IMG/VR virus record: IMGVR_UViG_3300042731_007021
Coordinates: 17,162 to 81,161 of that record
Origin: a virus
DNA length: 64,000 bases
Strand: one strand, 5' to 3'
Position 1 is the first letter of the stretch. Each line of letters begins with the position of its first letter. Below, one piece after another: positions 1,846 to 64,000 of the stretch. The position numbers were made by a program, and so were the translations under genes. Below the pieces are notes generated by a model, which saw only the letters and a list, made by a program, of their open reading frames with translations, searched no databases and was not told the DNA's origin.

Positions 1846-4112
1846 TGAATATTTAAGCTTGAGAAGGTGGCCAGCACTGTGCTGACTCCTGTCCCTGACT
1901 CTTTAAATGTGCCAGGGGGCAACTCTTCCCAGTGGTCTGCGATAGGTTGTAACTGTTCTACCTGCTTTGGACCTCCCGCGCAGATAGCCACCACCGTGCC
2001 CCCTGGCTTGACGAATTTTAGCGCGTGTTTGATGTGTGCTATATCCTGCCACTTTTCGAAAGGAGGGTTCATGATAACGGCATCATATAGGCCAAAAACA
2101 TTCAATTTCAGGAAATCGTCGAATATAAGATTATGGCCTTTCAATTCCAGAATCTCGCGCAATGTGTGATTAATCTCACAACAGTCCACATCGGCCCCTT
2201 TTTCCCTCAGCTTGTCAGCAATTGCCGCACTGGCCGCTGATGGTTCCAAAACCTTAGGCCTGTCATCAGGGTCACTGAAATCCAGACCGGAATAGTCAAT
2301 CATTTTATCCACAATATGCGCCGGCGTCGGAAAATACCCAGGGATGTTAGAGAATTGCAGGCTGTTAATTTTCATGCGCAAGGCGTCGGCCTGCTCATCC
2401 TGTTCCGTCCTTTTCTCCTTTAAAAGGTTCCATAGAGCCACCGTGGTTTTATCGTCACTCCGTGGCTTGCCAGTGCCTACCCGGTAAGAATGATAACCGT
2501 TCGGGATGTTTTCGCATTCCTCAGCCATGCAACCGTAAACGGCTTTTTTAGTCTTGATGTGCTGCAATTCAGGCGGGACGGTGCCTCGTTCGTGAAGGTC
2601 CGCAAGGGCATACAAGGCTTTTTGCGTCCTCTGCAGGCGGTAACCCTCCAGGCGGGCGTGTTCGGCCTGTGCTAACCGTTTCGGCGTGTTCGTGAGTCGA
2701 TCCGCTAACTTATCATTAACCTGGTTAGTCAACCTATCCGCCATGGCGCGAAGATTCGCGGCGGTAGCGGCGGTAGCGGTGCTTTTGCTCTCTGTGGCTG
2801 GCTTTTGGCTGTCAGGGGTGCGGACAGTAGTGCCCTTTCCCGGTCCGCTTCCGTCCGGGTCATCATCAGGCGAAACGGCCGTGTAACGTTCTGGCAGGCT
2901 GTCGGTCTTACCGTACCAGCACCCGTTGTATCGTGACCAGCGGAAGCCGTGAGCCTTCAATTCGTCGCGGGTGGCTTCGTCCGGCTTTGCATTGAATACA
3001 ATCTCAGTGAACCCCGGCTTCGTGCCCGGCCGGGTGGTGAATTCCTGGGGGCCAGCTGTAGGGGCGTTGTCGGCGTTGGATTTCCGGCTGGACTTCACAA
3101 TGCTTGAAGGAATGGCCCATGCTCCTACTGGTACGCTCTCAGGCTTGGCGGGAGCGTCTTTGTAACTTAGAGCCAGCTTTTTTATGGTCCAGCCGCTTGA
3201 GTTGGAGTGATTGCCGGGCTCTGTCAGGTAATAGCCGCTGCCCATGCTGTACTTTTCCCGGTGTTCCGTTTCTCTTTCACTGATGCGCCATCCGAAGCCA
3301 ATGGATTTATCTTCAAAAGTGATTGAATGTAAGGGGTGGGCGTCCGCATAGGCTTGCGCTTCGGCTTCGCTGTTGAATAACGTGGCGGGCTTTACTTCAT
3401 CATGCCAGTGTGATTGCTCTCCCTTGTAATGATAGGAACCGTTACTATAGAACTCCTCCTCAATGGCCGGATAAGCCTCAAACCAGCGGAGGGCCATACC
3501 GCGGACGGCTTGCGGGAGTTCGGTCCCGTCTTCCATTTGAGCATTAGCGGCGGCTTTGCGCATCTCGCTAAAAATGTCGCGGGTGTGAGTTGACCAGGCT
3601 AGAATGATGAACTCTTCCCCGTGGCTGGCGAAGTAGTCTGTCATAATGTCGGAATCATTCACGCGGCGTTCAGCCACAATCACGGCCTTTGCATTGGCCG
3701 GCATGCGTTGGCGGACTTGTTCAGTGAACTTGTCGCGGCGTTTCTGCGCCTGTTCGCGTTCGATCTCCTGTTGACGTATGCGGGCCTCCTGGCGCTGTTG
3801 TGCCTGGGTTAACTTTTCGGCGGCTTTGGCTTCGCTGATCGGCTGCACTTGATAGCGTTCGGCCTGTTGTGCGTAATCCTTTGCGCTGTATTCGTCCAGT
3901 TCGGAGGTCTCTCCGTCTTCCCATGCAATTAGAATCTCGCTGTTTACAGGCTTCAGGCCGTGTGATCCGAATATTGACATATTGCCGCCGGTGTCGCTGA
4001 TCCGGCAAATATAGCCGGTTCGGCTGTTGGCTGCGTCGTAGTGAGCTACAGGCTGTCCAATGTAATAGGGCGCTGCCTGGGTGATGTCGGAGTTTTGTGC
4101 CGGGTTGTTCAT
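1842..4112 (-). CDS. Multidomain (polyvalent-type) protein with C-terminal SAM-dependent N6-adenine-type DNA methyltransferase domain
   Basis: YFPTP, VLEPSA (motif I-like), IMNPPF (motif IV), LKFVKPGG and FKESGTGV in the last ~170 aa; ~580-aa N-terminal extension. Confidence 0.8.
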   Translation of the reverse strand: MNNPAQNSDITQAAPYYIGQPVAHYDAANSRTGYICRISDTGGNMSIFGSHGLKPVNSEILIAWEDGETSELDEYSAKDYAQQAERYQVQPISEAKAAEKLTQAQQRQEARIRQQEIEREQAQKRRDKFTEQVRQRMPANAKAVIVAERRVNDSDIMTDYFASHGEEFIILAWSTHTRDIFSEMRKAAANAQMEDGTELPQAVRGMALRWFEAYPAIEEEFYSNGSYHYKGEQSHWHDEVKPATLFNSEAEAQAYADAHPLHSITFEDKSIGFGWRISERETEHREKYSMGSGYYLTEPGNHSNSSGWTIKKLALSYKDAPAKPESVPVGAWAIPSSIVKSSRKSNADNAPTAGPQEFTTRPGTKPGFTEIVFNAKPDEATRDELKAHGFRWSRYNGCWYGKTDSLPERYTAVSPDDDPDGSGPGKGTTVRTPDSQKPATESKSTATAATAANLRAMADRLTNQVNDKLADRLTNTPKRLAQAEHARLEGYRLQRTQKALYALADLHERGTVPPELQHIKTKKAVYGCMAEECENIPNGYHSYRVGTGKPRSDDKTTVALWNLLKEKRTEQDEQADALRMKINSLQFSNIPGYFPTPAHIVDKMIDYSGLDFSDPDDRPKVLEPSAASAAIADKLREKGADVDCCEINHTLREILELKGHNLIFDDFLKLNVFGLYDAVIMNPPFEKWQDIAHIKHALKFVKPGGTVVAICAGGPKQVEQLQPIADHWEELPPGTFKESGTGVSTVLATFSSLNIH

Positions 4113-4175
4113 TGTTGGATTGCTCCTATTGTGTCGTTAATCTTTAAAGCGTCTTTCGCTTTGTCTGTGTTGCTT

Positions 4176-4415
4176 ATATTACATTAACTATAATGATGTA
4201 GTCAATATTTATTTTCTTGTTTTTATGCTTTGCTTGCCGGGCAAAGCATAAGGATGCTGTTTTGTTTGTCAAGTGCAATTTTTACAACTTTTGTAAAATC
4301 CTTGACCGGCGCGCCTGGGAAAGTTGCTGAAAACAGGTTGTTTAAATCTTGTTAAATCTTCGTTTTATGCTTTGCTTGCCGGGCAAAGCATATAGGTATA
4401 AATTTGATTTGTCAA
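4176..4415 (-). promoter_or_regulatory. Three tandem leftward sigma70 promoters
   Basis: TTGACT-18-TAATAT (4205-4176), TTGACA-16-TATGCT (4272-4245), TTGACA-17-TATGCT (4415-4387). Confidence 0.7.
4221..4392. repeat. 30-bp direct repeat (4221-4250, 4363-4392), each copy an inverted repeat TATGCTTTGC-N7-GCAAAGCATA
   Basis: ttttatgctttgcttgccgggcaaagcata occurs twice, overlapping the -10 boxes. Confidence 0.9.
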
Positions 4416-5227
4416 ACTTTATTTTTCTGGAGGTTTCCCCAGGAATGGCGCTGAATCGCTCCTATATAGATAGAAAAATTGGGTTTATGCAGGGTTTTTA
4501 GTTTGAATGTCTGATTAAGTGGCTTGGTTGGTTTGATGTTGAATGTGGGGGGATATGTAGCACGAAGCACGAAAATAAAAAAGTTGTGATTTCAGGTTTG
4601 CTGTGGATAAAATTTGGAGGTTCTAAAGCTGCCAGTTTTATGTGGGGCTGTTTTGGTGTGGGTGAGCCTGGATGATCGACTTTTGATAAGCTGAATTTAT
4701 ATGATAATAAGTAGTGAGAAGAAATAGAGAACTGGTTATTTTTTATACAATCTGTTTAAAATCAATGATTTAGTTATAGTGGGGTAGTACTCCGTTTTCA
4801 AACCGTGTTTACTACCCACCCAAAGTATTGGCAAAAAACGAGAATCTATTTTTTGCCGAAAATTTTTGTTTTCGTTTTTTTCCATTTACTTTTTGATAAT
4901 CTTGATCCCGCAAACGTTTTCGTTTTAGGGCGCTATTACTACTCTATTCTTTTTTTATGTTTATTATTTTTATATAAATAATTAAATATTTAATGTTTAT
5001 ATATAAAAGTAAAAGGATTGTAAAAAATGGATAGAAACCTAAGTTTTTAGATTGGTAATTTATTGTAATGATTGTTGTTGTTGGCCGTGGCTGAAAATTT
5101 TGGGTTTTTCATGGATGCTTTGATGTTGTAGGTTTTTGGTAAATGCGAATGATTCTTGGTTGTATTCGAATTCTCATTTATGCTTTTCTTTGGGTTTATA
5201 GGTTTTGGATGGTATCCCAGGCGAAAA

Positions 5228-5259
5228 GAAACGCGATAGATTCAAATCTATCGCGTTTC
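5228..5259. repeat. Perfect 15-bp inverted repeat with 2-nt loop
   Basis: gaaacgcgatagatt-ca-aatctatcgcgtttc. Confidence 0.85.
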
Positions 5260-5459
5260 AAGGCTTCAGGCTTAGTGAATAGGATCAATGGTTGATCAAT
5301 TCTAAGCGACTGTGACGCGTTCTAATCGATTTTTGATGGTAGGCTTTACCATTGTCGGCGATTAGATAAAGTTTGTTGTGGCGTAATTCAAAGCCGATTA
5401 TTTGCCCAACTAATTGGCGCGCCCGGTTATATAGTTTCCGATTGATTGTGTTCATGGTT

Positions 5460-5654
5460 TTAATCCTGGGTTTCCTCGATCGTTAAATAAAAAGGATTCA
5501 GGTTATACTTGTCTATTAATATTCCTTTAGCGGATTCAACTGAATCCGCTTCAATGGTGAATCCTTCATTTTTTGCGCCGAAAGTGCGGACATAATTACC
5601 GGACCATGTGATTGGTCGAAAAGATGCCATATTATGTTTAACGTTAAATTTCAT
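5460..5654 (-). CDS. Hypothetical early protein (start revised to MKFNVKHN)
   Basis: GGAG RBS before ATG at 5654. Confidence 0.6.
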   Translation of the reverse strand: MKFNVKHNMASFRPITWSGNYVRTFGAKNEGFTIEADSVESAKGILIDKYNLNPFYLTIEETQD

Positions 5655-6014: not shown

Positions 6015-6629
6015 TCATATCATAGATCCGTCCGAGTAAAACTCGTGCTCATTGATCAAAATTGACTCCTTTATAGCTTCATCGCTGTTTTGATACTCTA
6101 TATCTTGCTCCCAATCAATCCTGAAGGATTCAATAGAATCATTGATAATATCTTCGATATCTTGGCTGTCAGGCTTTTCGACAAAGTCCAGAATTGGATT
6201 TAACAACGAATAGTCGGCGCAAAATCCGGTAAGAGAATTATATTCGAATTGGATGTTTGAATGCCTGAATTTGTAATTATAACGGCCGTTTATGTAGTCA
6301 CCTTGTGTGCTGTAGTACTTGCCTTTTCTGAACAAAGGCAGCCAGTTATTAATAATCCAAGTTCTCAGGCGTAACCCTGTCAATTCAGTGTTTTCGATCT
6401 CTTCGAAATAATCAGGAATATCTATATTAATGTAACTATTCCCCCAAAGGCATATATAATAATCCTTCACTCTGACCCCTATAAGATCACAGAATTTGTT
6501 AAGGCTGTCCCGGTATTCATCGCCTCCGGTATATTCGAAACCTTGGGCTCTCCAGTTTTCAATGGCTTTTTGTTGAGCTTCTTCGCTTAACTCTTCAAAT
6601 GAATAAATGGTTATTGTTTCTGTTCTCAT
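6015..6629 (-). CDS. Hypothetical phage early protein (acidic/aromatic)
   Basis: 204-aa ORF, YSFEELSEEAQQKAIE N-terminus, CGAGGAA RBS. Confidence 0.75.
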   Translation of the reverse strand: MRTETITIYSFEELSEEAQQKAIENWRAQGFEYTGGDEYRDSLNKFCDLIGVRVKDYYICLWGNSYINIDIPDYFEEIENTELTGLRLRTWIINNWLPLFRKGKYYSTQGDYINGRYNYKFRHSNIQFEYNSLTGFCADYSLLNPILDFVEKPDSQDIEDIINDSIESFRIDWEQDIEYQNSDEAIKESILINEHEFYSDGSMI

Positions 6630-6662
6630 GATATTTTTCCTCGTGTCGTTAATTCCTGAAAA

Positions 6663-7001
6663 TTAATTAAATAGTCTGTCGCCGTAGTCGTAATCCGGAT
6701 TACCTACACAAACGGTTCCCAGGCATCCGGGCGCGTCGTCGAATTCATCGCGCTGAATCATCCAGCATTCCCTGGTGAATGGTGTTGGGGATACCCGTTC
6801 GTTACGTGTCATGCTCCAATTAGAGGCGTAAGTGGTGACCTCGGATTTTTTGATAGCTCGGCAATCCCATGTGTTACCTGACCAATGGTTATACCCATCG
6901 TTTTCCTCGACAAATTGGTCCCGCGAACTCTTGCTGCTAAACACGTACACGTCCCAGGTGTTGGAAAACCCTTGTTTATTTAATGCTGCATAATATTTCA
7001 T
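6663..7001 (-). CDS. Hypothetical early protein
   Basis: 112-aa ORF, CGAGGAA RBS. Confidence 0.7.
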   Translation of the reverse strand: MKYYAALNKQGFSNTWDVYVFSSKSSRDQFVEENDGYNHWSGNTWDCRAIKKSEVTTYASNWSMTRNERVSPTPFTRECWMIQRDEFDDAPGCLGTVCVGNPDYDYGDRLFN

Positions 7002-7074
7002 GATGTTAATTCCTCGTGCGTTAAATTTATTTAATAGCCTATCTCTTCAGCGCTAGTCGGCCAATGCTAGCGGA

Positions 7075-8282: not shown

Positions 8283-8352
8283 GGGGGAGGGAAAGGACAG
8301 CCGACCTGGGAGAGGGAAAGGACAGCCGACCTGGGAGAGGGAAAGGACAGCC
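8283..8352 (+). repeat. Tandem repeat, 25-bp unit x2.8 (gggagagggaaaggacagccgacct)
   Basis: Units at 8283, 8308, 8333 with no spacers. Confidence 0.9.
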
Positions 8353-60351: not shown

Positions 60352-60374
60352 AATAGGTAACTCCAGTTAGTTGC

Positions 60375-61026: not shown

Positions 61027-61209
61027 CTAATCATAAACGCCGACGCTTGTTTTCATCTCGCAGCGCGAGCAGGTCCAAGTTACATAGGTGTCGTGTTCAT
61101 CCTTTGTCTCAGGTGGATAGTCGTGATCGCAATCTGGATCGCCGCCGCTTGTGCTCACGTCGTGAGGACAACAGTAGTCTGGTAACTCTATTTTTCGTGA
61201 TGCTGTCAT
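61027..61209 (-). CDS. Cassette ORF, small Cys/His-rich protein
   Basis: CCPH, CDHDY, CSRC; GGAG RBS. Confidence 0.65.
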   Translation of the reverse strand: MTASRKIELPDYCCPHDVSTSGGDPDCDHDYPPETKDEHDTYVTWTCSRCEMKTSVGVYD

Positions 61210-61250
61210 GTTTGTATCTCCGTAGATAGTCGCGCCATTTAGCTAATTCG

Positions 61251-61484
61251 TTACCTTGCCCTAGTGTTCCAATCTGCAATAACGTCCCGCTTAGTGCCCC
61301 GTCGCATGGATACGCAATAGTTTATACATCCAATGCGCCATGTCGGGCGCTTAGTAGGGGTCTCATTTACCGCAGGAGCAGCTGGTGCCCCGCAAAAGGG
61401 GCAAGGTAACAAGCAAGTCAACTCGGACGCTGCGCGTCCTTGCGCCTGGTCGAGTTCGCCATCTCCTGGTAGTCCGTCGCCCAT
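61251..61484 (-). CDS. Cassette ORF, Lar-like restriction-alleviation protein
   Basis: LLPCPFCG...CINYC...IADWNTRA motif; AGGAG RBS and ATG lie inside the attC. Confidence 0.75.
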   Translation of the reverse strand: MGDGLPGDGELDQAQGRAASELTCLLPCPFCGAPAAPAVNETPTKRPTWRIGCINYCVSMRRGTKRDVIADWNTRAR

Positions 61485-61528
61485 ATCAGCTCCTGTGGCG
61501 CGTAGCGCCGGTTACTTTGTCGTTATAA
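61404..61528 (+). other. attC site (125 bp)
   Basis: AGGTAAC-aagca-AGTCAACT...GGTTACT-ttgtc-GTTATAA; inner stem cggacgctgcgcg/cgcgtagcgccg. Confidence 0.85.
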
Positions 61529-61702
61529 ATCCGTTTTTATCTTGCTACACGCTTCTACAAATTCGCGCATTGCCTTGGTAGTGTCTTCGGCAGCCTGCTT
61601 CACGCCAACCATCGCCGCCTTTAATTTTTCCGCTTCCATTTTCAAGGCTTCGATTTTTTCCATTGCTTCGGTGGTGTCTATTTTCAGTTCGGCCTTTGCC
61701 AT
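61523..61702 (-). CDS. Cassette ORF, 59-aa helical protein (not in ORF track)
   Basis: MAKAELKIDTTEAMEKIEALK...SKIKTDL*; GGAG RBS; stop TAA formed by the core site. Confidence 0.7.
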   Translation of the reverse strand: MAKAELKIDTTEAMEKIEALKMEAEKLKAAMVGVKQAAEDTTKAMREFVEACSKIKTDL

Positions 61703-61723
61703 TTCGGTTTCTCCAAAAAGTAT

Positions 61724-61798
61724 TTATAACAAGTCGTATCAGTTCGCTTCGCTTGGGACTTCCGCTTACGCTCCAGCCCCTGTACTCAGTTGTTATGG
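61724..61798 (+). other. attC site (75 bp)
   Basis: TTATAAC-aagtc-GTATCAGT...CCTGTAC-tcagtt-GTTATGG. Confidence 0.8.
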
Positions 61799-62209
61799 CG
61801 TTATATTCCACTTTGCCAATTCAATAGCTTTCCGCTTGGTCTCTAAATGAGCCTCACCAAATCCAGAGCATTGATTCTGAAAGTAAGTTATCTCTTCGCC
61901 TGCTTGCTGTATCGCTCTTAGGTAATACTGCTCTACCCATGAGTGGTCAAAAACAAACCGACCTTGTGCGGTTCCTCGCTCAAATACCTTATCTGGCTGT
62001 CTCGGGTCGATTACTACCGTTTCAATTTCAAAACCGCGTTCTCTGCACATGTTTTGTACGCGCTTTGCCTCCACATGGTCTGCAAAAGCCACCCGGTCGC
62101 CTTCTTTCAAGGCTTCAACCATTGCTACTGTTCTACCTGTTCTGCGTGCTGATTGAAAATATGTGTATGCCATGCCTTTCATTGCTTGGGCAATTCCAAA
62201 AATATCCAT
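61793..62209 (-). CDS. Cassette ORF, hypothetical protein with P-loop-like RRTGRT
   Basis: Start revised to MDIFG (GGAG RBS); stop in core site. Confidence 0.75.
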   Translation of the reverse strand: MDIFGIAQAMKGMAYTYFQSARRTGRTVAMVEALKEGDRVAFADHVEAKRVQNMCRERGFEIETVVIDPRQPDKVFERGTAQGRFVFDHSWVEQYYLRAIQQAGEEITYFQNQCSGFGEAHLETKRKAIELAKWNITP

Positions 62210-62239
62210 CGTCGTTTCTCCAAAGTTGTACCAATCGCG

Positions 62240-62302
62240 CCATAACAAGGCGCATCAAACGGACGCGCAAAAACCGCAGGCCCTTGTGCTAATTCGTTAG
62301 AA
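62240..62302 (+). other. attC site (63 bp)
   Basis: CCATAAC-aaggc-GCATCAAA...CTTGTGC-taattc-GTTAGAA. Confidence 0.85.
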
Positions 62303-62304
62303 CG

Positions 62305-62514
62305 CTACTTGCAGTTCACTGGCTTTCCTTTATCCGTCAGTTTCACGGAGAGAACAGCCTTCATTGCAAAATTCGCGTACCAGTATTCATGCCCATCAAG
62401 GCACACGGTGTCGTAGTCGTCGGGGTCACTTCCCAATGTCCAAGTCTTGTAGATCATGGTTCCAAAGAAACCCATCATCACCACTACAGCCAGCCATAAA
62501 AGTCCGTCTTTCAT
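62305..62514 (-). CDS. Cassette ORF, small membrane-anchored protein
   Basis: N-terminal TM helix, VCLDGHEY...GKPVNC; GAGGT RBS. Confidence 0.75.
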   Translation of the reverse strand: MKDGLLWLAVVVMMGFFGTMIYKTWTLGSDPDDYDTVCLDGHEYWYANFAMKAVLSVKLTDKGKPVNCK

Positions 62515-62526
62515 TTGAACCTCGCG

Positions 62527-62579
62527 TTCTAACAAGTTGGTCAGGCCGCCTTCGGCCGCCGCTTACCTCGGCGTTATGC
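62527..62579 (+). other. attC site (53 bp, short)
   Basis: TTCTAAC-aagtt-GGTCAGGC...GCTTACC-tcggc-GTTATGC. Confidence 0.8.
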
Positions 62580-62780
62580 GTCGTCATCAGCAAACCAAAC
62601 AGTCACCACGGATAGCGGCGGAACAACCAGGCCAGCACCGTGAATCATTTCGCATTTGTAGTTTGATTCAAAATCGCAAGATGCTAGTTTTACGGAATTC
62701 CAAATCCACGAACCGCCGCCAATCACAATGACGAATACAACAATCAGTTCAATCATGGTAAAACCTCTTTGCTTTTTCAT
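62574..62780 (-). CDS. Cassette ORF, prepilin-type N-terminal cleavage/methylation protein
   Basis: MKKQRG-FTMIELIVVFVIV class III signal; stop in core site. Confidence 0.8.
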   Translation of the reverse strand: MKKQRGFTMIELIVVFVIVIGGGSWIWNSVKLASCDFESNYKCEMIHGAGLVVPPLSVVTVWFADDDA

Positions 62781-62810
62781 TTCCATTTCTCCAGTTAAAT
62801 TAAATAAATC

Positions 62811-62912
62811 GCATAACAAGCGCATAAACTCCGACCCAAAAAGCAGTTGGCATCCGCGCGTTAATCAAGCATCGTGGCCCGCTTTTTGGGAGGGTTATGC
62901 TTCACGTTAACT
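62811..62912 (+). other. attC site (102 bp)
   Basis: GCATAAC-aagcg-CATAAACT...GGTTATG-cttcac-GTTAACT; stem cccaaaaagc/gctttttggg. Confidence 0.9.
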
Positions 62913-62914
62913 GT

Positions 62915-63088
62915 CTATTCTATAACTACCTCAATATCTTCAGGGATACCGAAGGGTTTATCACAGATTTCGCATTCTGAGTCCCCGCCACGAGGGTCAG
63001 AAAGCCAGCCTTGATTTTCAAACCCGCAGTGCGGGCAAATGATCTTCGCGTTGTAGCTGTTAAGTATGAATTTCTTTGCTTGTTCCAT
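62915..63088 (-). CDS. Cassette ORF, 57-aa Zn-ribbon protein (not in ORF track)
   Basis: MEQAKKF...CPHC...CEIC...EVVIE*; GGAG RBS. Confidence 0.7.
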   Translation of the reverse strand: MEQAKKFILNSYNAKIICPHCGFENQGWLSDPRGGDSECEICDKPFGIPEDIEVVIE

Positions 63089-63107
63089 AGGTTCTCTCCG
63101 ATAAAAC

Positions 63108-63169
63108 GACTAACAATTATATCCAGCCGACCTTCGCTACGCCCAGGCTGCTGATAATTGCCGTTATAA
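63108..63169 (+). other. attC site (62 bp)
   Basis: GACTAAC-aatta-TATCCAGC...GCTGATA-attgcc-GTTATAA. Confidence 0.88.
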
Positions 63170-63376
63170 CGCTTCCAGTTGCTTTTGCACCCATTGTCTC
63201 GCCGCTATCCTAGCCTGCGCCGCACTCTTTAGTCCTTCCGCAATCGGAAAAGATTTTCTCGGTTTTGTGTGCGGGTTATCAGGAATCGTCGGATCATCAA
63301 ACAAACATTGCCCGTCAATGCGAGCAAAATACCCATTGCTACATTTTCCAATATATAATTTTGGGTTCATTTCCAC
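63164..63376 (-). CDS. Cassette ORF, hypothetical protein
   Basis: GAGGT RBS; stop in core site. Confidence 0.7.
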   Translation of the reverse strand: MEMNPKLYIGKCSNGYFARIDGQCLFDDPTIPDNPHTKPRKSFPIAEGLKSAAQARIAARQWVQKQLEAL

Positions 63377-63390
63377 ACTTTTACCTCGCG

Positions 63391-63437
63391 TTATAACAAG
63401 TTAATCCAGTGCGAGCTTCTCTTCGCTCGCCATTATG
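63391..63437 (+). other. Truncated attC (R'', L'' and inner hairpin present; L' and the G of R' lost)
   Basis: TTATAAC-aagtt-AATCCAGT-gcgagc...gctcgc-cATTATG. Confidence 0.6.
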
Positions 63438-63621
63438 TGCCTTCAACCTTCAGGGTTTCGCGCTCAAATACTCCAGGCAATTTGTTGAGCCGTATTTCCA
63501 CCTCTACTCCTTGGTAGGTAATAATGCAGCTCGGGTCGTCACCAGCGTCCAGTAAAGTGCCGAAGTTTTGTAAATGGTCTGCCAGCCATGCTTTTGCAGG
63601 CTGTTGTAAATCTGCAATCAT
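63433..63621 (-). CDS. Cassette ORF, hypothetical protein (start revised to MIADL)
   Basis: AGGAGG RBS. Confidence 0.7.
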   Translation of the reverse strand: MIADLQQPAKAWLADHLQNFGTLLDAGDDPSCIITYQGVEVEIRLNKLPGVFERETLKVEGT

Positions 63622-63643
63622 GTTTCTCCTCCTGCGCACAGGC

Positions 63644-63703
63644 GCAGAACAATGTTATCTAGTTGATCTCGCTATGCTCAGCGACAAAGTTCAGTCGTTA
63701 GGC
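63644..63703 (+). other. Degenerate attC (60 bp)
   Basis: GCAGAAC-aatgt-...tcgct/agcga hairpin...tcagtc-GTTAGGC; L boxes pair poorly. Confidence 0.55.
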
Positions 63704-63877
63704 ATCCTTGCATTTACCTACTGGAGGCACCCATTTGTATCCAGTAACTCGCATCCATAAATAATCTGTCTGCCTGGTTTGCTGTGCGCCACACCGACTA
63801 CATACCCGCTTAGGGTCGGCCACCAGCCCCAAAACTCCTTGGTCGACGGGTTGCCAATCGTGCTTACGGTTATTCAT
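63698..63877 (-). CDS. Cassette ORF, small Cys/His protein (start revised to MNNRKH)
   Basis: KHDW...CSRCG; stop TAA in core site GCCTAAC. Confidence 0.65.
   Translation of the reverse strand: MNNRKHDWQPVDQGVLGLVADPKRVCSRCGAQQTRQTDYLWMRVTGYKWVPPVGKCKDA

Positions 63878-63933: not shown

Positions 63934-64000
<67 letters not shown>

Follow-up and report, generated by a model that had tools for sequence, protein, structure and literature searches.

Orientation control is central to the current integron model: the asymmetries of the attC site make a cassette enter with its gene in sense to Pc. The window analysed here, the whole stretch of 64,000 nucleotides under study, raises the question of whether an entire array can depart from this polarity. 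At 61.0-63.9 kb, within the leftward early/replication arm of a ~81 kb virulent-type phage, it carries an integron-type cassette array in which all genes lie antisense to their own attC. A preliminary description had noted this reversal, and the present analysis confirms that it is real.

The region is probably a genuine integron-type cassette array without an integrase in the window (CALIN), a judgement that applies to the best explanation as a whole. A complete integron, defined by an adjacent intI (TIGR02249), attI and Pc, is ruled out within the 64 kb window by the absence of IntI: a tblastn search (E ≤ 10) found no IntI1-like protein there, the contig's first 17,161 nt being outside its reach, and none of ten large window ORFs examined was an IntI. 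By contrast, the definition requiring at least two co-oriented attCs spaced by < 4 kb, without a nearby intI, is met, with six model-supported + strand sites within 2.3 kb. Core sequences of the expected types (R'' RYYYAAC, R' GTTRRRY, 50-150 nt apart) are present at eight sites in the arrangement AAC...GTT, one with ATT, and covariance model scores are significant at two sites with one model (R1, E < 1e-4) and at five with another (R2, E ≤ 0.023).

These models, both built in this analysis rather than taken from IntegronFinder, were derived from the top strands of ten class 1 cassette attCs (R1, run over the whole window with filters off) and from 95 chromosomal attCs whose orientation was set by the associated IntI (R2). 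R1 gave ten matches in the window at E ≤ 10, four of them within the array and all four on the + strand, the other six being scattered over the window with E-values of 2.4-8.8; R2 gave 13, of which the six within the array were likewise all on the + strand. Neither model matched the - strand anywhere in the array at E ≤ 10. In control searches, R1 recovered five of six held-out class 1 attCs, all on the top strand, with the reverse strands of true attCs reaching up to 19 bits; all 112 chromosomal matches, from 19 of 20 regions, lay on the strand expected from the location and orientation of intI; and the three attCs of the TJE1 phage array were placed on the same strand as its annotated CDSs. 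A template applied by hand, comprising the 5 nt spacer, the extra base at position 4-5 of L'' and a second spacer of 5-6 nt, scored at least 6 on the known top strand of all 16 reference attCs and at most 5 on the reverse. A genome-wide scan with a simple template returned too much background at thresholds of 10.5-12, and the template was retained for fixed site boundaries only. On these, six of the eight array sites scored 6-7 of a possible 7 with + as the top strand, against 3-5 reversed, such that orientation can be called at six sites and is + at each. Two independently oriented models, and the L''/spacer asymmetry at every decidable site, support the + strand as the canonical top strand of the array. 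The recombinogenic bottom strand would then be the - strand, on which every gene likewise reads in sense, recombination itself being inferred. Minimum free energy folds of single sites were mostly non-canonical and gave no guidance on polarity.

Individual sites, all on the + strand, differ in their preservation. At the left end is a lone R'-type core, GTTACCT (61250-61256), the attC body to its left being eroded; its TTA is the stop of the ORF at 61251-61484, and it is complementary at 7/7 positions to the R'' (61404-61410) of the site that follows. This next attC, 125 nt long (61404-61528; R2 22.0 bits, E = 0.0013; L-box 6.5 versus 3 reversed), overlaps, through its R'' and L'', the long reading frame of a Lar-like gene at the 5' end. 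It is followed by attC 'a' (61724-61798; R1 15.4 bits, E = 0.14; R2 13.0 bits, E = 0.39; L-box 6 versus 4.5), attC 'b' (62240-62302; R2 24.8 bits, E = 2.2e-4; L-box 6 versus 4) and the best formed site, the 53 nt attC 'c' (62527-62579; R1 30.2 bits, E = 1.7e-5; R2 24.8 bits; L-box 6.5 versus 4.5). The 102 nt attC 'd' (62811-62912) was missed by both models at E ≤ 10; its L-box scores 6.5 versus 4.5 with the outer R', but the boundary 62811-62900, set by an alternative inner R' (GTTATGC, 62894-62900), scores 4 versus 5.5, in the wrong direction. Beyond attC 'e' (63108-63169; R1 28.6 bits, E = 4.6e-5; R2 25.9 bits; L-box 7 versus 5) lie two sites at which the L-box gives no orientation: the eroded attC 'f' (63391-63439), which keeps R'' and the central stem, has AAC followed by AA like other sites, lacks L' and has the core A|TTA, and the weak attC 'g' (63644-63703; R2 17.5 bits, E = 0.023; R1 10.6 bits, E = 2.7).

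The ten ORFs of the array are all on the - strand. The leftmost encodes a Cys-rich product of 60 aa (61027-61209; stop TAG, SD and ATG) with no significant Pfam or PHROG family match, and is followed by a Lar-like restriction-alleviation gene (61251-61484) matching phrog_599 (E = 9.9e-6) and Pfam PF14354 (E = 1.4e-5), the latter at 25.7 bits, under the 28.6 bit cut-off. As the Lar domain spans residues 25-76, the true start may fall inside the part overlapping the attC. Next come a coiled-coil-like ORF of 59 aa with only weak family matches (61523-61702), a cassette gene of 138 aa without assigned function (61793-62209), which served as the probe for related loci, a membrane-like small ORF of 69 aa from its SD-preceded ATG, with a TAG stop 2 nt past R' (62305-62514), and a pilin-like ORF (62574-62786) whose prepilin N-terminal methylation motif (PF07963) scores 29.3 bits, exceeding the 21.2 bit cut-off. 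The remaining four comprise a 57 aa zinc-ribbon ORF (62915-63088; phrog_16376, E = 2.4e-11), an ORF of 70 aa (63164-63376; phrog_25727, E = 6.3e-9) and two that, counted from an SD-preceded ATG, encode 62 aa (63433-63621; no Pfam or PHROG family match) and 59 aa (63698-63877; no significant family match). An SD-like motif precedes the ATG by 5-12 nt in all ten, which, with the Lar, pilin-motif and PHROG matches, bears out the assignment of every ORF to the - strand.

Seven stops had been proposed to use the TTA directly after the predicted crossover, and this count, out of ten ORFs, holds: six lie on a TTA directly after G (61251, 61523, 61793, 62574, 63164 and 63698), with the seventh (63433) after the A of a degenerate core. 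The other three (61027, 62305 and 62915) use a CTA situated 2-3 nt past the R' box. At least seven in-frame stops out of ten would arise by chance with a probability of 0.020 (binomial, p = 1/3). The suggestion that each ribosome binding site lies near or inside the attC stands only in its first part, since the SD is located between R'' and the start codon. Read in gene sense, each cassette therefore runs from attC through a short leader with an SD to the ORF, with the stop at or a few nucleotides from the R' crossover, a classical cassette in mirror image. Contigs from a metatranscriptome library cover 61628-61904, across attC 'a', with no strand given and DNA contamination possible.

Cassette boundaries can be approached through complementarity and homology. 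Six of eight R'/R'' pairs taken across a cassette are complementary at 7/7 positions, compared with 4-5/7 within seven of the eight full sites and 1/7 within the eroded 'f'. Homology between the window and another contig, L011, extends over window positions 61789-62263 (475 aligned columns, 86%), ending at the R' crossover of attC 'a'; its limit falls exactly on the complement of G|TTATGG, so that the attC 3' of the stop is not common to both. Similarly, in L034 and L036, which have related backbones, the last array gene ends on an R' half-site directly against the common backbone, with no attC body after it. The L011 homology break and the L034/L036 array edge, both sequence comparisons, support a position of the attC 5' of its gene. 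Window and L011 share the upstream attC body only as far as R'', its spacer and the beginning of L'', and with this partial conservation co-inheritance of a whole attC with the gene is not demonstrated. Cassette content differs between related backbones. No cassette-deletion joints or variants were found in contigs of three runs (X1-X3), X1 perhaps being the source sample. Two pairs that are nearly identical, L030/L031 and L046/L047, break off at G-runs away from any attC, and are thus uninformative on cassette boundaries.

The same layout recurs elsewhere. A blastn search of the array against a phage collection gave no match, and the phage primase has no relative in viral_contigs or metagenome_contigs, its best phage matches, in Vibrio SHOU24-like phages, reaching only 27% identity. 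The 138 aa protein has no close relative in viral_contigs and only 33-34% identity in phages, but searches with it yielded 45 homologues, 56 metagenome loci and seven genome loci. Antisense attCs lie beside homologues of its gene in seven other contigs (L011, L014, L021, L034, L036, L069 and L070). Across the 56 gene-oriented metagenome loci, 13 of 14 R1 matches were antisense to the gene, the fourteenth being the reverse strand of the best site, and both significant attC matches in MAG loci were antisense. The metagenome loci also have an SD and ATG after the complement of R'', their stops coinciding with the complement of R' or narrowly preceding it, and the attCs in L034, L036 and L011 score 42-60 bits with the bulged base correctly placed. 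This recurrence, together with the L011 break and the L034/L036 edge, upholds the preliminary description's distinct cassette class with the attC 5' of its gene. Weak support comes from the L034/L036 array ORFs: three of seven on the + strand of those contigs had PHROG matches at E ≤ 0.0034, against none of three - strand controls, and codon-usage log-likelihood ratios exceeded 0.1 for seven of nine + ORFs, but were also positive for five of 11 - ORFs.

L021 is a phage-like contig that carries a bona fide IntI, arranged in the canonical geometry. The integrase scores 414.5 bits against TIGR02249 (cut-off 265), and neighbouring genes match PHROGs, for example phrog_846 at 5e-59. Its intI, encoded on the same strand as the array genes, is to the right of the array, and the attC top strands point away from it; the position of intI fixes the attC polarity independently. 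A further contig with an IntI and a homologue, L073, was set aside, its attC calls being weak and contradictory.

Gene orientation was tabulated, as the preliminary description had proposed, by a counting pipeline run identically on 20 bacterial chromosomal arrays, the window, TJE1, L014 and L021, with a margin of 40 nt; at a margin of 15 nt it miscalls TJE1 orf2. The bacterial arrays contained 66 sense, nine antisense and 16 ambiguous cassettes (n = 91), with never more than one antisense cassette per array, against none sense, six antisense and one ambiguous in the window (n = 7), which accordingly fails the definition of classical cassettes; the ambiguous one carries the - strand PHROG match at 2.4e-11. 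In L014 one cassette was called 'sense', a doubtful call given that the + ORF extends for 54 nt within a weak 123 nt site. By these counts the recurring class is rare in ordinary bacterial arrays. An IntI was present in 47 of 121 genomes, a tally that includes the unpublished genome G028, on which no other claim rests.

Beyond what was observed directly, namely how sites and genes are oriented, the cross-cassette match of R' with R'', the recurrence of the layout in other contigs and its rarity in ordinary bacterial arrays, the explanation offered is inferential. An integron integrase, encoded by the host or, as in L021, by the phage, would insert and remove cassettes by acting on the folded - strand at G|TT, although recombination has not been assayed. 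Expression would come from read-through of leftward phage transcription rather than from Pc. Recombination would keep all attCs within an array in one orientation, with intI divergent from the array top strand by construction, as seen in L021. An array so constrained, within a one-directional phage operon, could express only cassettes with antisense ORFs, and selection may therefore filter for the antisense class. It is possible, though as a whole no more than tentative, that phages keep their own reverse-polarity pool of accessory and counter-defence genes, shuffled by host or phage IntI and mutually silent with the bacterial pool, with the recombinogenic strand on a transiently single-stranded template and L021 as a phage-borne complete integron of that kind.

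Among other explanations, the one that survives best, if still doubtful and untested, makes replication, as in the ssDNA suggestion of the preliminary description, the primary cause in place of the operon and platform geometry: the polarity would serve to make the recombinogenic bottom strand the template for lagging-strand synthesis in the replicating phage, maximising cassette turnover. In Vibrio cholerae, excision rose from < 7e-5 to 3e-2 when bottom strands were put on the lagging-strand template, according to the available part of Richard et al. 2024 (PMC13108822). GC skew is negative from 44 to 64 kb of the window, the part with leftward genes, and its sign alone is compatible with genes co-oriented with the fork, whose sense strand would then be the lagging-strand template; but skew follows the direction of transcription equally well, the replication origin and mode of this phage are unknown, and the three runs contained no variant joints. 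Considerably less plausible is that the sites are look-alikes, phage RNA or DNA hairpins such as terminators, processing sites or translation regulators in leaders, not recombined by an integrase. Such hairpins would suit a window without integrase, sites placed in 5' leaders beside an SD and partly eroded, and RNA contigs crossing attC 'a'. They would not account for scores from models of real attCs of up to 30 bits here and higher in the related contigs with the bulge in place, for the 7/7 match across cassettes, which is the footprint of recombination through circular cassettes, for gene-sized homology bounded at a crossover, for the differing cassette content of related backbones or for an IntI adjoining such an array in L021; furthermore, IntI1 recombines published phage attCs (Qi et al. 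2023, PMC9892861, as far as available). Least likely of all are conventional cassettes with the - strand as the true attC top, in which each ORF would end inside its own R'', at the TAA of RYYYAAC, with the following cassette starting at a - strand G|TT, for while this parse matches the classical layout of core, SD leader, ORF and TAA exactly, the R'/R'' footprint is compatible with either reading and the L011 homology starts only ~9-16 nt upstream of that - strand core, it is opposed by the lack of any - strand model match in the array even though reverse strands of true sites reach 19 bits, by the extra base and 5 nt spacer on the + strand 5' arm at 6/6 decidable sites, by homology ending exactly at the + strand crossover and not after a downstream attC, by the last L034/L036 gene having no attC after it, and by the polarity set independently by the L021 intI.

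Whole antisense arrays, the reading preferred here, would present, within a phage transcription unit, the same recombination sites serving genes of reversed polarity. If the proposed separation is true, phage cassettes taken up at a bacterial attI would read antisense to Pc, bacterial ones entering a phage array would be antisense to phage transcription, and a recombinogenic strand on a transiently single-stranded template would favour fast turnover. This bears on where cassettes originate, on the functional separation of phage and bacterial cassette pools, and on how phages gain and exchange small accessory genes, the cargo here including a Lar-type anti-restriction gene. It is also a warning for annotation, as the rule that a cassette is an ORF followed by an attC fails for reverse-polarity arrays.

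Several known systems share features with this array. Classical cassettes of class 1 and sedentary chromosomal integrons have the same R''/L''/L'/R' boxes, 5 nt and 5-6 nt spacers and extra L'' base, along with co-oriented sites, R'/R'' complementarity across the cassette, cassettes filled by their ORF and frequent TAA stops in the core; they differ from the present array, where the genes are all antisense, the attC is 5', the stop is in R' rather than R'' and the window has no intI. Inverted chromosomal cassettes occur singly, scattered among sense cassettes, and have internal promoters, a picture to which the Fig. 1 legend of PMC13108822 contributes. Those with their own promoters, such as toxin-antitoxin cassettes of the V. 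cholerae superintegron, likewise have an ORF antisense to the attC top strand, whereas here the entire array is reversed and operon-like, with only an SD per leader. The CALINs of virulent phages are also integrase-less attC clusters between small accessory genes, with some of the published sites shown to recombine with IntI1 (Qi et al. 2023, Front Microbiol, PMC9892861, section 3.4). The available part of that paper describes 2-4 sites per array and, its supplement not being covered, makes no mention of genes antisense to attC; Supplementary Table S1 lists 17 CALINs, and the TJE1 array is conventional, with three attCs and orf1-3 all on the + strand. No array with all genes antisense to attC is described in the full-text literature consulted (PMC9892861, PMC4889954, PMC13108822 and PMC8876359, each available in part and with supplements outside its scope) or in the accessible portions of three preprints (10.1101/2022.02.06.479319, 10.1101/2024.07.02.601686 and 10.64898/2026.03.17.712381), which does not prove absence, and Table S1 of PMC9892861 may be relevant here. 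Inverted-integrase integrons, found in Treponema and others, depart too from the classical divergent order of intI and cassettes, but in these, as far as the accessible text of Cury et al. 2016 (PMC4889954) extends, it is intI that is turned while cassette ORFs remain co-oriented with attC; in L021, by contrast, the classical relation of intI to attC is kept and it is the ORFs that are turned.

In 16 attC sites from plasmid class 1 integrons, where intI1, attI1 and established resistance genes set the polarity, the R''-L'' spacer is without exception 5 nt long, L'' has one additional base on the top strand, at its position 4, and the L'-R' spacer measures 5-6 nt. A covariance model built from ten of these sites, R1, recovered five of the six held out, on the top strand every time, and gave reverse-strand matches to two training sites only (19.1 vs 60.9 bits and 9.6 vs 75.4 bits). 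One class 1 integron was found to contain a group II intron maturase gene (L004:7208-8557) lying antisense within the attC after blaIMP-26; such elements are already known and likewise enter attCs with reverse polarity. A second set of controls came from outside class 1: IntI (TIGR02249) was located in 47 of 121 genomes from one bacterial order, a tally that includes the unpublished genome G028, and 20 regions were taken on the expected array side of chromosomal intI. At E <= 0.01, R1 returned 112 matches across 19 of these regions, in all 112 cases on the strand expected from where intI lies and how it is oriented, and 95 of the chromosomal attCs were used to build a second model, R2. Lastly, R1 detected the three attCs of phage TJE1 on the + strand, that of the annotated orf1-3; these sites have been experimentally validated (Qi et al. 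2023, PMC9892861).

When applied to the window, R1 with filters off reported four array sites and R2 six (61404-61528, 61724-61798, 62240-62302, 62527-62579, 63108-63169 and 63644-63703), all on the + strand and, for R2, with boundaries identical to those set by hand; neither model gave a - strand match in the array. An L-box template with fixed boundaries scored six sites at 6-7 of 7 with + as the top strand vs 3-5 when reversed, the same behaviour as that of the 16 reference attCs, while two eroded sites gave no strand decision and an alternative inner boundary of one site (d, 62811-62912) favoured the opposite, - strand. The preliminary description, in which the attC asymmetries read canonically on the + strand, is thus borne out except at the two undecided eroded sites. 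Just left of the array, between two - strand ORFs, positions 60356-60372 comprise a minimal R''-like/R'-like pair (GGTAAC, 4 nt, GTTAGTT) without an attC body. In L034 and L036, two loci encoding homologues of one of the cassette proteins, the array is bounded by another pair of this type (TATAACAAC/GTTAGGC), also body-less; such pairs are candidate primary insertion sites, either attI-like or attG-like.

Ten small ORFs, separated by spacers of 38-90 nt, extend from ~61.0 kb to the contig end, all on the - strand as previously proposed. These frames are supported by a Lar-like gene (residues 25-76; Pfam E 1.4e-5, under the Pfam cut-off; phrog_599 at 9.9e-6), an ORF with a prepilin N-methylation motif (29.3 bits, exceeding the cut-off) and matches to phrog_16376 (2.4e-11) and phrog_25727 (6.3e-9). 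Each ORF had been credited with its own RBS near or inside the attC; an SD-like motif followed by ATG does precede all ten, its position being immediately past R''. Similarly, the seven ORFs said to stop on the TTA directly after the crossover do so, with the core base being G in six and A in one, and the remaining three end on a TAG 2-3 nt further in; seven or more of ten ORFs being in frame with the core TTA has a chance probability of 0.020. Several cassettes have a near-identical leader around the SD (…TTGGAGAAAC…; 61709-61720, 62216-62227 and 62787-62795), and L034 and L036 likewise have a common leader (…GAAGGCAGAGGACT ATG) ahead of different ORFs, such that leaders look to have been homogenised within a lineage.

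The array might instead be parsed conventionally, with the - strand as the attC top strand and each gene upstream of its own attC. Complementarity between half-sites permits this: of the eight pairs that span a cassette (left R' vs next R''), six are 7/7 complementary, R'' and R' within one site match at 4-5 of 7 positions in seven of eight full sites and at 1 of 7 in an eroded site (f, 63391-63439), and this pattern, the signature classically left by circular cassettes, is compatible with either parse. However, the conventional parse fits neither of two comparisons with related loci. The first of these, L011, has only 475 nt in common with the window (61789-62263; 86% identity); in the gene sense, homology breaks off precisely where the + strand crossover falls on the complementary strand, between the last A and the C of …CCATAAC, with an unrelated attC beyond, and on the upstream side it takes in the leader, R'', the spacer and the initial bases of L'' before decaying. 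Secondly, L034 and L036 have a backbone in common (78-81% identity) and differ in cassette content, and the last array gene of each ends on a GCCTAAC half-site abutting that backbone, without an attC body after it. As far as sequence comparison can indicate, both the homology limit and the attC-less last gene fit the inferred arrangement, in which the attC lies 5' of its gene.

Genes antisense to their attCs also recur among relatives. For the 138-aa cassette protein (61793-62209), 45 homologues were found, and an alignment of 20 led to 56 metagenome loci, each set with the gene on +. Of the 14 matches that R1 gave, in five loci, 13 are on the - strand and the other one is the best site read in reverse; L034 and L036 have textbook attCs of 57-60 nt (42-60 bits). 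On the gene strand of these loci, SD and ATG come after each site, and the stop that precedes the site falls within the complement of R' or immediately ahead of it. Genome bins added two loci (labelled Aquabacterium and Gallionellales MAGs) in which an antisense attC immediately flanks the gene on its upstream or downstream side. The attC bodies L034:3203-3259 and L036:7846-7902 are 95% identical while the ORFs either side differ, which looks like the attC homogeneity within lineage of chromosomal superintegrons.

No IntI1 match was found in the window by tblastn, which detected full-length homologues in two relatives, L021 and L073, passing TIGR02249 (cut-off 265) at 414.5 and 405.2 bits respectively. 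In the 43 kb L021, intI (6055-7026, +) is located to the right of the array and on the same strand as the genes, and the attCs (3736-3827, 4041-4127 and 5414-5500, all -) have top strands directed away from it, the classical divergent arrangement; all genes of the array, among them the 138-aa homologue, run toward intI. Because the position of intI sets the array direction, reverse polarity is fixed here without any attC model. Five of ten neighbouring ORFs have PHROG matches (E <= 3.4e-6; best 5e-59), hence the L021 contig seems to be of phage or prophage origin. Its integrase and the adjacent array may together constitute a complete reverse-polarity integron carried by a phage. Were intI transcribed as part of the phage operon, its array would necessarily be antisense to that operon and only reverse cassettes could be expressed, which suggests an explanation for the existence of this class; expression by read-through, a selective filter favouring reverse cassettes and IntI-mediated turnover of these particular sites are all inferred.

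The window, which covers the right-hand 64 kb of a contig of 81,161 nt, has phage structural genes on the + strand, a leftward replication arm (SbcCD-like proteins, family A polymerase, helicases and primase) and a gpA-type terminase elsewhere. The contig terminates in a run of >60 A (63937-64000), probably an assembly or library artefact, past which the array may continue. An AT-rich non-coding stretch at 4140-5250 (GC 0.37), with a hairpin-like unit (…TTTATGCTTTGCTTGCCGGGCAAAGCAT…) repeated at ~4225 and ~4365, may be an origin or regulatory region; it lies 3-4 kb left of the divergence point of both transcription arms at ~8.4 kb, where the intergenic region has three tandem copies (8285-8350) of a ~26-nt, GGGAGAGGGAAAGGACAGCCGACCT-like unit. 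A link between polarity and the strand exposed in replication would be inference only, resting on a compatible GC-skew sign and a published lagging-strand effect on integron recombination (PMC13108822). The array stretch was found in two wetland DNA runs, one possibly the source sample. Contigs from a metatranscriptome library cover 61628-61904 (spanning attC a, 61724-61798) and 62360-62502 as well as a segment of the primase gene, without strand or joint information and with DNA carry-over possible. A contig from the second wetland sample (run X2) has a match confined to the 5' arm of attC a (61724-61756), with SD and ATG of another gene on one side; as its flanks differ, the same arm is present in another cassette context.

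Arrays with every gene antisense to its attC were not found described in the literature covered, which excluded supplementary material; CALINs in phages are already published (PMC9892861). Gene strand was compared by one pipeline throughout, which took, for each interval between neighbouring sites, the longest ORF on each strand, with a 40-nt margin, a 1.3-fold length rule and a GC-position tie-break. Among 91 chromosomal cassettes, 66 were sense, 9 antisense, at most one per array, and 16 ambiguous, and both TJE1 cassettes were sense. The window yielded six antisense, no sense and one ambiguous cassette, the last being a PHROG-supported - strand gene; at the chromosomal rate of 9/75 called cassettes, the probability of 6/6 antisense is ~3e-6.
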